NCBI GenBank assembly: GCA_029858305.1
Contig: JAOUFI010000081.1
Span: 1 to 10,166, forward strand
Source of the DNA: Candidatus Thorarchaeota archaeon
GTDB taxonomy: Archaea; Asgardarchaeota; Thorarchaeia; Thorarchaeales; Thorarchaeaceae
Reading direction: 5' to 3'
Length of the DNA stretch: 10,166 bases
Shown: positions 2,419-10,166 of the stretch, one piece after another
How the letters are laid out: every line of letters begins with the position of its first letter
Numbering within the stretch: the stretch's first letter is position 1
Notes under the pieces: generated by a model
Seen by the model: the letters and a program-made list of their open reading frames with translations, nothing else
The model's database searches: none
What the model was told of the DNA's origin: nothing
Position numbers and translations under genes: made by a program

Positions 2419-3843
2419 CTACGCTAGATCAATAGGAATGTTGTGCGGGCTTGCCTCTCTTCTCATAACACTGTATGTTGTCACATCGAAGTGTTGAGAA
2501 ACATCCCATGCCCAAGTGTTTCGACGACGATCGTACATTGGAGAAACCTTGGTTGTTCCACCGATTGCTGCATCAATAATCCATGCAGAATAATCATCGA
2601 CCTTTGAGGTTTCATCATCGAGCACATCTAATACAGACTTGCCTAGACCAGTGGGGAGTGCAGCAATGAACAGCATCTTCTTATCTGATTTATCTTCGAG
2701 ATTAGAGATTTGGCTCATGTAGGTCAAAGGCAAATTATGCCATCCAGGGTTGATATTGCCACCGACTTCTGGACTACAAACTACGACAATACGATCACTC
2801 AATTGAGGTATATTCACTCGTGCACGAGGGAGAATTATTTCATCGTTAAGAAGACCGGCCCTTTTTCGAAAAGCTGAACTCTGAGAAAGATTCGTAGTTT
2901 TCACGATATCATTTGCAGTCCCATCCAGACTCTCTACAAGCGCATCCATCACCAAAGTGTCTGATTTTTTGATTCGTACAATTTCTGAAGCGGCTGATAA
3001 AGGAGCGCCTGAAATAGTGATAGGATCACTGCCCTTTCGCAACATAAGGCGGAAGTGGAATAGATCCAGAGCCTTCCATCCCTGTTGTTGAGTAGAGTAG
3101 ATACTATTGAAATTGGGATGACCTGCGGACAATCCGTAGGCTTTAGTGTTTGTACTAGAATTCCTTAAGCTCCGAACAACATCGAGGAATTCTTTTCGTT
3201 TAGAAAACGGAACTGTTGCTACTGTGAGAACAAGTGGTGATCCATCATTATCATCAATAAAGAGACTCTTTTGGCAATAAGGACCTGACAATACAAAAGA
3301 AGGATTCTCTAAGACTATCAGAACGCGTTCGAGACCCAGTTTGTGTACATTTATCATACCACCGATTTTCAAAACACCACTATCAAAGAGACGCTTCTGC
3401 GCGCGACGGCATTGAGAGTAGGTCTGATTCGCTTTGAATGAGAGGTCTTTTAGGGAAGCACCAGGATTGTGAACTACGGCTTCAAGAAAGGTCAATTCTG
3501 TCTTTGAGAGCATAGAGATGTTATCCTCCCACAGCTGTGTGATGAGACTCATAACATCCCGTTGTGTGATGATCTCTACGCCGCCAAGTTTGAGAACTTG
3601 CCCCAATCGTTTCATGAGGGAAACATACAAACTTCCACGGTAAGATGTTACGATTTGTTGCAATCGAAAAAAATCAGCATCTTCTGTCATTACATCAATT
3701 TTCCCTCCTTCTTCGAATATTCTTACAAACCTCAGAATGGCTTGGGCACTTGGAGATAATTTCTTCTCAAGTTTCAAAGTGTCATCATCGGGCATTAGCT
3801 TGTCGTCCTGAACACGGTCATCTGAATCTGACTGCGTCACCAT
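2419..3843 (-). CDS. Hypothetical protein with two tandem Lrp/AsnC-like (wHTH plus alpha/beta) modules; putative DNA-binding regulator
   Basis: Module 1: LSKTELTFLEAVVHNPGASLKDLS...RRAQKRLFDSGVLKIGGMINVHKLGL. Module 2: IKKSDTLVMDALVESLDGTANDIV..NLSQSSAFRKRAGLLNDEIILP. Both fit the Lrp-type wHTH pattern. I prefer the ATG at 3843 (preceded by GGTGG) over the GTG at 3852. Confidence 0.6.
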   Translation of the reverse strand: MVTQSDSDDRVQDDKLMPDDDTLKLEKKLSPSAQAILRFVRIFEEGGKIDVMTEDADFFRLQQIVTSYRGSLYVSLMKRLGQVLKLGGVEIITQRDVMSLITQLWEDNISMLSKTELTFLEAVVHNPGASLKDLSFKANQTYSQCRRAQKRLFDSGVLKIGGMINVHKLGLERVLIVLENPSFVLSGPYCQKSLFIDDNDGSPLVLTVATVPFSKRKEFLDVVRSLRNSSTNTKAYGLSAGHPNFNSIYSTQQQGWKALDLFHFRLMLRKGSDPITISGAPLSAASEIVRIKKSDTLVMDALVESLDGTANDIVKTTNLSQSSAFRKRAGLLNDEIILPRARVNIPQLSDRIVVVCSPEVGGNINPGWHNLPLTYMSQISNLEDKSDKKMLFIAALPTGLGKSVLDVLDDETSKVDDYSAWIIDAAIGGTTKVSPMYDRRRNTWAWDVSQHFDVTTYSVMRREASPHNIPIDLA

Positions 3844-3911
3844 TTGTCCCACCGTGATAGTTCAAAGCGAGTGTTACTAACGGTAGAATATGTTTTGCAG
3901 AGAATTTAAGC

Positions 3912-7632: not shown

Positions 7633-8436
7633 CTATTTTTGACATGTCTGGCAGTAACTTGTCTTGAAACGGTTTGCGCGCACCTCAGAAACTCGCCCAC
7701 CGCATAGAGGGCATATACCTCCCCCCTTATTGTGAATCATCAAGAAGTCTCGTTTCTCTGTGGTGATATCATCTAAAGATCGCTCCGCAAGAATTTCTTC
7801 GATGCGAAAAAGAACCTTCTTCATTGATAGATAGAGCATTTCAATCTCTTGAAGACTTAGCGAGACCCGTTTTCTGAAGGGCAGGATACCAGCATAAAGA
7901 AGAATCTCATCAGCATAGGCGTTTCCTATACCCTTCAAGAACCGCTGATTGCGCAAGACACTCTTTATCTGCCCATTAAACTGCTTAATTCGTAGTGTGA
8001 AATCCTCCAGAGACAATGTGGGATTCATCGCCGATGGACCACGGCCGCTAAACCCAGCCACCAAAGAATAATCGCCTCTTGGGACAAGATATACACGTCC
8101 CATCTTCTTGGTGTCCGAATACCACAGAGAAGGACCATCAGTTTGAATAGAAACCATATCTATTCTTGTTGGATTTCGATATCGTTTGAATGCTCTAAAT
8201 CTCCCAGTTAGCATAGGATTAATGACTATATCGTGATCATTAAGGTGCACTATCAGAAATTTCCCATCAGCTTCGCACTTCTGGACTGTTTCTCCAATTG
8301 CACCTCTGGAAAATTCCTCAATAGTGAGTCCATGAATGACAATATGGTTATAGACTGAAATCTGTGAAATCGCATGACCTGCCAATAGATTTGTGATATG
8401 TTCACTAATCACAAGCAATTCTGGGAGCTCTGGCAT
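7633..8436 (-). CDS. Fpg/Nei family DNA glycosylase/AP lyase (Fpg2/MutM2-like)
   Basis: The true start must be ATG 8436, giving the catalytic N-terminus MPELPEL (267 aa). Also GKFL, the H2TH motif LRNQRFLKGIGNAYADEIL and a C-terminal Zn finger CPLC...CQTCQ. Confidence 0.93.
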   Translation of the reverse strand: MPELPELLVISEHITNLLAGHAISQISVYNHIVIHGLTIEEFSRGAIGETVQKCEADGKFLIVHLNDHDIVINPMLTGRFRAFKRYRNPTRIDMVSIQTDGPSLWYSDTKKMGRVYLVPRGDYSLVAGFSGRGPSAMNPTLSLEDFTLRIKQFNGQIKSVLRNQRFLKGIGNAYADEILLYAGILPFRKRVSLSLQEIEMLYLSMKKVLFRIEEILAERSLDDITTEKRDFLMIHNKGGGICPLCGGRVSEVRANRFKTSYCQTCQK

Positions 8437-8549
8437 GATAACTCTCGCCCATTGTGTGCATCCCGGAGATAAGAACAATATGTATTTGTGAAGCATAACG
8501 ACCAAAAGGTAGGATGAATCTGTATCTTCTTGTTTAGGAGAGCACTGCC
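8437..8549. promoter_or_regulatory. Divergent intergenic region; SD-like AGGAG at 8536-8540 for the plus-strand gene
   Basis: 113-nt spacer between head-to-head genes with an AT-rich core (AATATGTATTT). AGGAG lies 9 nt upstream of ATG 8550. TATA boxes not assignable with certainty. Confidence 0.4.
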
Positions 8550-9203
8550 ATGCAATATCGCAAGAAAATGATGACTGCTGTTGCTCTAACATTAATAGTG
8601 ACACTAATTGTTTCAGTATCAACAGAAAGTCTTCGAGATTATCTATATTTCACATGGCAGGTGCAAGAAGGTGAACATTTCATCTTTGAAGTATCTGTAG
8701 ATGGGTATAGTGAGACCGGGAATGTATTATTCCCTGTCGCACAGGCGGTTTTGAATAATACCAGACTTATGGTCGAGATAGTTTCTCTTCCTATGGACTC
8801 AATTATAATAGATGGAAAGATCTATGCAGAATATATCATAGAGTATTTGAAGACAAACCTGAGCTTTGAAAATGGGACTGCAATACCCCTGAACCTGATA
8901 TTTGAGATGAATAACCTTGTTTCAAGATGCTTCGTTCCAAGAGGACCTTGGAATCTTCTAGACTCGTTTTATCCAGACAATTTTGTACAGCCAATAAATG
9001 CTACAGCAGAGTCCTACATTTCACATTTCCAGGGTAACTCATTCTACATTGGATATGTTTCATATAGCGTCAATAGGGGCACTGGCTGGAATTGTGTTTG
9101 CTCTATGAGTACAGGAGTGCCTTCAACCATGAAAACATGGGCTTGGAGTTACGGAGGATTGCATGAATATTCCTACAATGTTACTCTAAATTTGGTGGGG
9201 TAA
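8550..9203 (+). CDS. Hypothetical exported or N-terminally anchored glycoprotein
   Basis: 217 aa. Basic N-region (RKK) plus hydrophobic stretch AVALTLIVTLIVSV. Five N-x-S/T sequons (NNT, NLS, NGT, NAT, NVT) in an aromatic, beta-rich body. SD present. Confidence 0.75.
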   Translation: MQYRKKMMTAVALTLIVTLIVSVSTESLRDYLYFTWQVQEGEHFIFEVSVDGYSETGNVLFPVAQAVLNNTRLMVEIVSLPMDSIIIDGKIYAEYIIEYLKTNLSFENGTAIPLNLIFEMNNLVSRCFVPRGPWNLLDSFYPDNFVQPINATAESYISHFQGNSFYIGYVSYSVNRGTGWNCVCSMSTGVPSTMKTWAWSYGGLHEYSYNVTLNLVG

Positions 9204-9249
9204 AGACACGCAAATATCACTTAAGTCAAGATTAGACAATGGAAAAGTT

Positions 9250-9846
9250 ATGCCAGAACCGATGGTTTTTCACATTCAGAAGGGCCGTCTTGTCAAGATG
9301 CCAGATCCAGGGGCATTCGGAAGAGGAGACTGCTATCTAGTAGATGCAGGCCTGAAAATATACCTCTGGATTGGCCCCAAGTCGACCGTTGACGAAAAAT
9401 TCCTGACTGCAGCAACTGCAGTAATGCGGGACACAAATCGAGAAGGCAAGGCGGACATCGACCGTATCGAGGGAGGAAATGAACCTCCTGAGTTCAAAGC
9501 CTTGTTTGATGATTTCAGACTAACTGATGAAGATACTGAGGGAATTCTTAGGAAAGTGCACCTCGAAACTCATGAGTACAAGCTCTGGAAAGTGCATCGT
9601 GAAGGTGATGAGACCTTCTTCGCAGAAGTTCCCTTAAACAAGAATTCATTGAAGTCGGATGATGTTTTTATTCTCGACACTTGGGACGATATATGGGTGT
9701 GGCGAGGAAAGCAAGCTTCAGCCCGAGAGAAATTCGATGGGAATATCCTCGCTCGAAGATATGACGCAGAGCGTGTTGGTGTTCAAGACATCGAAATCAT
9801 TGAAGAGGGCGAAGAGCCAGAAGAGTTCAAAAAAGCATTCCCATAG
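9250..9846 (+). CDS. Two-domain gelsolin-family protein (Asgard 2DGel-type actin regulator)
   Basis: 198 aa with two gelsolin repeats: FGRGDCYLVDAGLKIYLWIGPKSTVDEK...IEGGNEPPEFKALF and LKSDDVFILDTWDDIWVWRGKQASAREK...IEEGEEPEEFKKAF. Linker GILRKV. Confidence 0.93.
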   Translation: MPEPMVFHIQKGRLVKMPDPGAFGRGDCYLVDAGLKIYLWIGPKSTVDEKFLTAATAVMRDTNREGKADIDRIEGGNEPPEFKALFDDFRLTDEDTEGILRKVHLETHEYKLWKVHREGDETFFAEVPLNKNSLKSDDVFILDTWDDIWVWRGKQASAREKFDGNILARRYDAERVGVQDIEIIEEGEEPEEFKKAFP

Positions 9847-9848
9847 AC

Positions 9849-10166
9849 TTACACAAGTCTGTAGTGACCTGGTCGGGGTTCATAAAGAACCCCTCCGTCC
9901 TTCATCCGTGCCAAGGTCTCTGCAGCAATATAGCGTTCAACTCCGGCTTCTTGAGCAATTTCATCCAGAGTTGGACCTAGAGAGCCACGTTTTCCCGTGT
10001 CAAGTAGCCGAATAGCTTTCAATACCTTGGTATTGAACTGGTGAATGCGGCTGTCTTTGCCCCAATCTGCCTCGGAGGTCCTTTTAATTTCGGATAGTTC
10101 CATGAACTCTTTTAATGCTGGTTCAAGAATTCGATCCCAGGCTTGTTTTATTTCACTTGCACTAAT
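9849..10166 (-). CDS. C-terminal fragment of a winged-helix-terminated protein, probably MCM-like; gene starts beyond the right edge
   Basis: The frame stays open upstream of Met 10103 to the window end: ISASEIKQAWDRILEPALKEF-MELSEIKR...TLDEIAQEAGVERYIAAETLARMKDGGVLYEPRPGHYRLV. The terminal GxxYEPxPGxYxxV is typical of archaeal MCM and RPA32 winged helices. Confidence 0.6.
   Translation of the reverse strand: MSASEIKQAWDRILEPALKEFMELSEIKRTSEADWGKDSRIHQFNTKVLKAIRLLDTGKRGSLGPTLDEIAQEAGVERYIAAETLARMKDGGVLYEPRPGHYRLV

Follow-up and report, generated by a model that had tools for sequence, protein, structure and literature searches.

The closest described relatives of the gene studied here are three Thorarchaeota two-domain gelsolins, 2DGel, 2DGel2 and 2DGel3, which share 76-89% identity with one another; 2DGel3 stems from assembly SMTZ1-45 (PMC7444086). 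These proteins are reported to consist solely of two gelsolin domains (PMC9433394). In the published assays, which used rabbit actin throughout, they were inactive in EGTA and active at 0.3-1 mM calcium, and the activities described were severing, capping and monomer sequestration, with nucleation by 2DGel2 and 2DGel3 (PMC7444086). Pyrene assays gave calcium-dependent severing for all three. Under TIRF, filaments were bundled by 2DGel; 2DGel2 severed them and did not bundle, and 2DGel3 first severed and afterwards bundled and annealed. These differences were ascribed to substitutions at actin-contact residues (PMC7444086). Affinities were weak, with a Kd of 135 uM for 2DGel3 and 54-113 uM for the other two. 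Co-crystals of the orthologs with rabbit actin give the position of D1 on actin and place D2 differently from human G2 (PMC7444086).

Type I and Type II calcium signature residues are described as conserved in both 2DGel domains (PMC9433394). In the Thor2DGel/G-actin crystal the D1 Type I, D1 Type II and D2 Type II sites are occupied and the D2 Type I site is empty, and on the actin side the D1 Type I site is liganded by residue 167; the same source already reports AlphaFold2 models of Thorarchaeota 2DGel with its own actin (PMC9433394). The WH2-like motif is defined as a leucine, two basic residues and a valine or threonine, the Thorarchaeota example being LRRV (PMC9433394, PMC7444086). Heimdallarchaeota and Lokiarchaeota 2DGels (7whf, 7whg) have in common with the Thorarchaeota proteins the two domains, the signature residues of both site types and a WH2-like motif in the centre. 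They differ by their additional calcium sites and by C-terminal extensions (Tail, Link, Zn), and in the Lokiarchaeota protein LVDV replaces the basic motif (PMC9433394). Eukaryotic members of the family are reported to act at micromolar calcium, compared to 0.3-1 mM in the Thorarchaeota proteins.

The window analysed here is a stretch of 10,166 nucleotides that makes up one entire contig (C110) of a Thorarchaeota assembly (3.04 Mb, 205 contigs, 88.9% complete). Near its end lies an open reading frame for a two-domain gelsolin, the features of which are listed below. Repeat positions on the DNA were taken from a six-frame Gelsolin search of the source genome. Conservation refers to an alignment of 32 sequences, namely the window protein and 31 orthologs out of 37 related loci (L012, L024, L035, L038, L041 and L043 were excluded because they are near-duplicates, truncated or partial). 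We assign the residues G26, D27, E49, D61, D138, E160 and D172 to presumed Type I or Type II sites by homology, from human gelsolin numbering, the alignment to horse gelsolin and the published site descriptions (PMC9433394); on the same grounds we take D61 to be the signature residue of the Type I calcium site that gelsolin and actin share.

9250..9846, + strand: two-domain gelsolin (2DGel ortholog), complete CDS, ATG start, 198 aa and stop (ORF list)
9310..9498, + strand: Gelsolin repeat 1 (D1 core, aa 21-83), Pfam on DNA 50.8 bits, long helix H47-62 in the model
9325..9330, + strand: codons G26-D27, presumed D1 Type II calcium site, invariant in 32/32 orthologs, aligned with horse gelsolin G-D
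9394..9396, + strand: codon E49, start of the D1 long helix, presumed Type II site, at least 90% conserved, aligned with a horse gelsolin Glu
9430..9432, + strand: codon D61, end of the D1 long helix, presumed Type I site, at least 90% conserved, aligned with a horse gelsolin Asp
9547..9558, + strand: inter-domain WH2-like motif L100-R101-K102-V103, L100 invariant, V103 at least 90% conserved
9622..9831, + strand: Gelsolin repeat 2 (D2 core, aa 125-194), Pfam on DNA 57.1 bits, long helix H158-174 in the model
9661..9663, + strand: codon D138, presumed D2 Type II calcium site, invariant in 32/32
9727..9729, + strand: codon E160, presumed D2 Type II calcium site, invariant in 32/32
9763..9765, + strand: codon D172, presumed D2 Type I signature position, at least 90% conserved

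The frame is intact, uninterrupted and without introns, and its stop lies 4 residues past repeat 2, leaving exactly two gelsolin domains and no C-terminal extension. The protein matches Pfam Gelsolin (PF00626) in two stretches with an E-value of 2.2e-30 and 104.7 bits (cut-off 21), at the sequence level a match far beyond chance. An earlier note on this DNA had claimed two complete gelsolin repeats in an otherwise archaeal, intron-less context, with acidic residues at the expected calcium positions, and had named the Pfam model as a check. The profile search bears out the repeats; the uninterrupted frame, the prokaryote-style neighbours and relatives that are mainly Thorarchaeota MAGs agree with the context; and all seven residues named (G26, D27, E49, D61, D138, E160, D172) were found, each invariant or at least 90% conserved in the 32 orthologs. 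The Type II signature, a Gly-Asp on a strand plus a Glu opening the long helix, occurs in both repeats (G26-D27/E49 and D138/E160), and LRKV at 100-103 has the leucine, the two basic residues and the valine of the WH2-like definition. NCBIfam holds no family for the protein. Residues 35-82 of D1 (window 9352-9495) also score barely above the cut-off of Pfam DUF7904 (PF25480; 31.3 bits vs 30), a family that presumably overlaps the gelsolin fold.

From the ortholog alignment, AlphaFold2 gave a model with two alpha/beta units, each made of strands around one long helix (H47-62; H158-174), with a mean pLDDT of 76 and a pTM of 0.47. As modelled, each repeat thus adopts the gelsolin/cofilin alpha-beta fold that the earlier note had expected. 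Foldseek against the PDB placed the crystal structures of Thorarchaeota 2DGel bound to actin on top (7c2h_G, E 4.4e-34, 87% identity; 7c2g_G, E 3.2e-32, 79% identity), followed by the Heimdallarchaeota and Lokiarchaeota 2DGels (7whf, 7whg; E 6e-20 and 5e-16), CapG and gelsolin G1-G3; every PDB match listed is a gelsolin-family chain. The linker of the free model is of low confidence, with residues 98-107 below pLDDT 50, and taken together with the pTM of 0.47 the relative placing of D1 and D2 is therefore not predicted. Over the whole chain the TM-score is about 0.48 and the rmsd near 10 A between the free model and the structures, which most likely reflects a differing or undefined inter-domain arrangement in the free model.

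Sequence comparison led to the same proteins. With phmmer against all PDB chains, the best match was 7c2h_G ('2DGel3', E 9.1e-118) over residues 1-198, followed by 7c2g_G (E 1.7e-107); eukaryotic gelsolins reached about 1e-34 to 1e-36, the Heimdallarchaeota 2DGel 8.5e-29 and the Lokiarchaeota 2DGel 2e-22. The labelling of 7c2g_G is inconsistent: the sequence file calls it '2DGel3', and the entry title reads 'Thorarchaeota 2DGel/rabbit actin complex'. The window protein resembles 2DGel3 (7c2h chain G) in its 198-aa length, its two-domain architecture lacking a C-terminal extension, its full-length match, its identical calcium-site residues and the place of its WH2-like motif. It differs in belonging to another species, in the linker (LKKV in 7c2h, LRKV here) and at 27 positions, counted against the SMTZ1-45 locus (L015; 171/198 identical = 86.4%). 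Thorarchaeota 2DGel (7c2g chain G) has the identical architecture but is more divergent (79%), carries LRRV, and in TIRF bundled rather than severed (PMC7444086). Identities of 79-87% to the characterised members thus fall inside the 76-89% range published for those members among themselves. Identity to 7whf and 7whg is just 31-34%, and the window protein lacks their extensions. Eukaryotic gelsolin, CapG, adseverin and villin share the repeat family and the fold (best phmmer E 8.6e-36) and retain the G-D...E calcium signature and the W-x-G core motif, but they are only about 24-29% identical and contain three or six repeats, against two here.

The closest loci, L007 (93%) and L008 (91%), are both titled Candidatus Thorarchaeota. 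At least 74% identity was found in 32/37 related loci. The titles of all 37 read Candidatus Thorarchaeota (20), 'uncultured archaeon' (6), Promethearchaeota (5), Helarchaeota (2), and Promethearchaeati, Hermodarchaeota, Thermoproteota and 'archaeon' (1 each). The titles of the closest loci and synteny support a Thorarchaeota origin of the gene, which answers the question of contig taxonomy that the earlier note had raised. Among 15 orthologs of identical length dN ran from 0.04 to 0.23; synonymous sites were saturated in 13, and the two computable pairs gave dN/dS values of 0.029 (against L007) and 0.033 (against L017). These ratios argue strongly for purifying selection on the gene; separated by domain, only 2-3 pairs were usable owing to saturated synonymous sites. 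Among the 21 public runs listed for window 8000-10166, none was an RNA run. The gene is present in 57/61 sampled genomes of the family (the source genome and 56/60 others), a 3.16-Mb chromosome record included. It belongs to an already known class and orthologous group that is near-universal in the family. The earlier note had called the class already described and had presented Asgard gelsolins as calcium-dependent regulators of actin, and both statements agree with the structures and biochemistry of orthologs published in 2020 and 2022 (PMC7444086, PMC9433394). In genus g4 (G042, G103, G032) a divergent 2DGel paralog with 45-48% identity to the window protein was seen, and G042 and G103 have an additional 2DGel copy elsewhere (76-77% identity).

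The source genome carries a single actin gene (C185:53737-54840, Pfam 442 bits). Its best PDB match is the Asgard 'HC1 actin' (625 bits), ahead of eukaryotic actins (about 530 bits), and in the column of actin residue 167 it has a Glu, within 'PIYEGFS' (ORF residue 184). Pfam Profilin (PF00235) matched nothing in the source genome at E 0.001 or at E 10. A profilin at C155:19780-20157 was found via a same-genus bridge protein (83% identity, E 1.6e-65), for which the PDB search gave the Thorarchaeota profilin structure 7pbh (E 2.2e-54); a divergent profilin-like frame lies in tandem (C155:20266-20592; 30% identity to the bridge query, E 4.7e-15). The two genes that the earlier note had proposed to look for, actin and profilin, are thus both present. 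Two ORFs of 141 and 183 aa between actin and the gelsolin gene that have no Pfam family were tried as profilin candidates and gave no relevant PDB sequence match. The genome further encodes two single-domain gelsolins, a ProGel ortholog of 92 aa (C127:16616-16780; L004:1474-1752, - strand; 7c2f_B at E 1e-36) and a protein of 93 aa (C16:1982-2125; L005:1471-1752, - strand) that matches villin (E 6e-13), 2DGel domain 2 (E 2e-11) and, more weakly, ProGel (E 3e-9).

Across the family, 6 of 55 actin match rows (53/60 genomes) are 30 nt longer and contain one in-frame stop (TGA or TAA): G074:C24:27517-28650, G160:C90, G156:C13, G080:C3, G157:C1 and G161:C103. Possible causes are an assembly error, a frameshift, a small insertion or an element resembling an intron.

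Very probably, the window ORF belongs to another Thorarchaeota species and is orthologous to 2DGel, 2DGel2 and 2DGel3, and its product is a calcium-dependent actin severing and capping protein whose mechanism we reconstruct by homology. By this analogy the protein would be inactive without calcium. Calcium would occupy the Type II sites within D1 (G26/D27/E49) and D2 (D138/E160), and a Type I site would be shared between D61 of D1 and an actin glutamate. The LRKV linker would run along actin in the fashion of a WH2 motif and D2 would touch the side of the filament. The predicted outcome is calcium-dependent filament severing and barbed-end capping, together with monomer sequestration or nucleation, and the target would be the single actin of the source genome. 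Actin binding, calcium dependence and the dominance of severing, bundling or nucleating are properties that we infer for the window protein from its orthologs. Given 27 substitutions relative to 2DGel3 and the divergent behaviour of the orthologs, the exact activity is therefore not readable from the sequence.

That last point bears on the most serious of the competing readings, in which the gene is a true 2DGel ortholog but its main cellular role is to bundle, anneal or nucleate filaments rather than to sever and cap them. The three characterised orthologs do behave differently under TIRF and two of them nucleate (PMC7444086), and the window protein, 86% identical to the SMTZ1-45 locus behind 2DGel3 and 79% identical to 7c2g, need copy neither. 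Since all three nevertheless severed in a calcium-dependent manner in pyrene assays (PMC7444086), and since the window protein retains every element that severing requires (D1, the WH2-like motif and D2), we consider this role unlikely, while giving it appreciable weight. A gelsolin fold put to a use unrelated to actin has a precedent in Sec23a, for the gelsolin-like domain of which actin binding is described as not demonstrated (PMC7444086), and the weak affinities of the 2DGels for rabbit actin would fit such a use. Against it stand the co-crystallisation on actin of orthologs with 79-87% identity, the conserved WH2-like actin-binding motif, and an actin gene less than 20 kb away, tail to tail, in 25/26 family genomes in which both genes share a contig; we hold it to be very improbable.

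The gelsolin repeat is a eukaryotic signature domain, and a control Pfam Gelsolin search matched 0/14 well-known prokaryote genomes, which might suggest a eukaryotic contaminant or a recent eukaryote-derived transfer binned into an archaeal MAG. In each of three Thorarchaeota MAGs, however, one contig is colinear with the window over about 10 kb, orthologs occur in 57/61 sampled family genomes, identity to eukaryotic gelsolins is merely about 25-29% (Foldseek), introns are absent, and TrmB, Fpg and other prokaryotic genes flank the gelsolin gene. Synteny and the family-wide distribution rule out this reading, to which we attach next to no probability. An archaeal 2DGel ortholog that severs and caps actin in response to calcium is the reading that we prefer.

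The position of actin relative to the gelsolin gene became apparent from a contig join. The final 612 bases of C185 (70710-71321), read as reverse complement, match window positions 9555-10166 at 98.7% identity, and single contigs of L008, L007 and L015 are colinear with the window and then with the reverse-complemented C185. The 612-nt overlap and the colinearity in three relatives therefore indicate that C110 and C185 dovetail. The overlap has 8 mismatches, 2 synonymous within the gelsolin gene and 6 within the neighbouring ORF, and it looks like strain variation kept the contigs from being merged. With the two joined, actin lies 16.2 kb downstream of the gelsolin gene in convergent orientation. 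Pfam families in the intervening 16 kb are metabolic and housekeeping only, with no cytoskeletal genes among them, and an actin-2DGel operon was ruled out on this basis.

A sample of 60 further family genomes yielded 2DGel in 56, actin in 53 and both in 51. The two genes share a contig in 26/51, always tail to tail with actin downstream (26/26), and these genomes represent 12/16 genera; in 25/26 the distance is 537 nt to 19.3 kb (median 8.3 kb). The exception within one contig is G145, with 75.9 kb between the genes, and G181, G156 and G125 have 21-48 kb of contig downstream of 2DGel without actin. G103 has an additional 2DGel copy without actin linkage, and in G042 and G032 of genus g4 the actin-linked 2DGel is the divergent 45-48% paralog. 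A separate five-genome linkage set overlaps this sample (at least 3 genomes with identical contig coordinates) and is thus not independent evidence. In the 37 named loci, extracted with 10 kb on either side, actin lies inside 1/37, and 22 have 10 kb of downstream sequence without actin; the same length downstream is free of actin in L039, L041 and L042, distant relatives from outside the family.

In genera g3 and g7 the gene order is a 257-aa ORF (divergent), actin, a 503-aa ORF on the actin strand, 2DGel (convergent), and the M20 and luciferase-like genes that the window also has. In genus g11 actin and 2DGel are 537 nt apart and the 503-aa ORF is absent between them. The entire block is syntenic, and the linkage may therefore reflect simple inheritance rather than selection. 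The Asgard actin and gelsolin literature, in the portions of the papers available to us, makes no mention of an actin-2DGel gene linkage, which may thus be unreported so far. That 2DGel sits in an old, conserved Thorarchaeota actin neighbourhood (257-aa CARF-like ORF, actin, with or without the 503-aa ORF, 2DGel) is a doubtful proposition in our view. If such an arrangement were kept by selection, it would represent a primitive cytoskeleton locus in which actin is co-ordinated with a calcium-switched severing factor; if true, a CARF-type small-molecule-sensing regulator might control the locus, which would add a novel input to the regulation of archaeal actin.

Asgard gelsolins count among the findings which indicate that a regulated, calcium-responsive actin cytoskeleton is older than the eukaryotes. 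The window gene adds one further species-level ortholog and leaves the picture of pre-eukaryotic actin regulation unchanged. The tail-to-tail linkage of actin and 2DGel in at least 12 genera lends context support to archaeal actin as the physiological target, and this is valuable because the published assays used rabbit actin. The linkage also points to uncharacterised neighbours as candidate cytoskeleton-associated factors.

One such neighbour is the 257-aa ORF (L044:664-1434, - strand, corresponding to C185:52663-53433), which is divergent from actin and occupies this place in each of the four genera compared (35-44% identity). It had no sequence-family match, NCBIfam included. Its AlphaFold2 model (pLDDT 71.7) is confident in the C-terminal half and poor over the N-terminal 100 residues, which are predicted to be helical. 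The model matches CARF domains, with Csm6 at E 2e-6 and also Cam1, Card1, Can2, ring nucleases and Csa3. As modelled, this CARF-like protein may be a ligand-sensing regulator beside actin.

The C-terminus of the 503-aa ORF lies at window 9849-10166 (- strand), 3 bases past the gelsolin stop (full length L044:17517-19025, + strand). Genera g3 and g7 retain this ORF in the interval from actin to 2DGel (46-49% identity), and in the source genome its 5' end overlaps the 3' end of an N6/N4 DNA methylase gene. Neither Pfam nor NCBIfam gave a matching family, and the leads obtained, to the MCM C-terminal winged helix, were weak (PDB E 0.1-0.3; Atlas scores <0.9).

On the other side, a 217-aa ORF (window 8550-9203, + strand) precedes the gelsolin gene on the same strand, with 46 nt between its end and the gelsolin start. 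Searches of Pfam and NCBIfam found no family for it, and no counterpart was detected next to 2DGel in genera g3, g7 and g11. A hydrophobic N-terminal segment, several N-x-S/T sequons and only 38-49% identity in close relatives suggest a protein that evolves quickly and is secreted or sits in a membrane. The remainder of the window holds a TrmB regulator and tightly packed prokaryote-style genes. Among these is a 477-aa ORF (window 2419-3852, - strand) without a Pfam or NCBIfam match, which adjoins the TrmB-family regulator in close relatives and also in genus g7 (35% identity).
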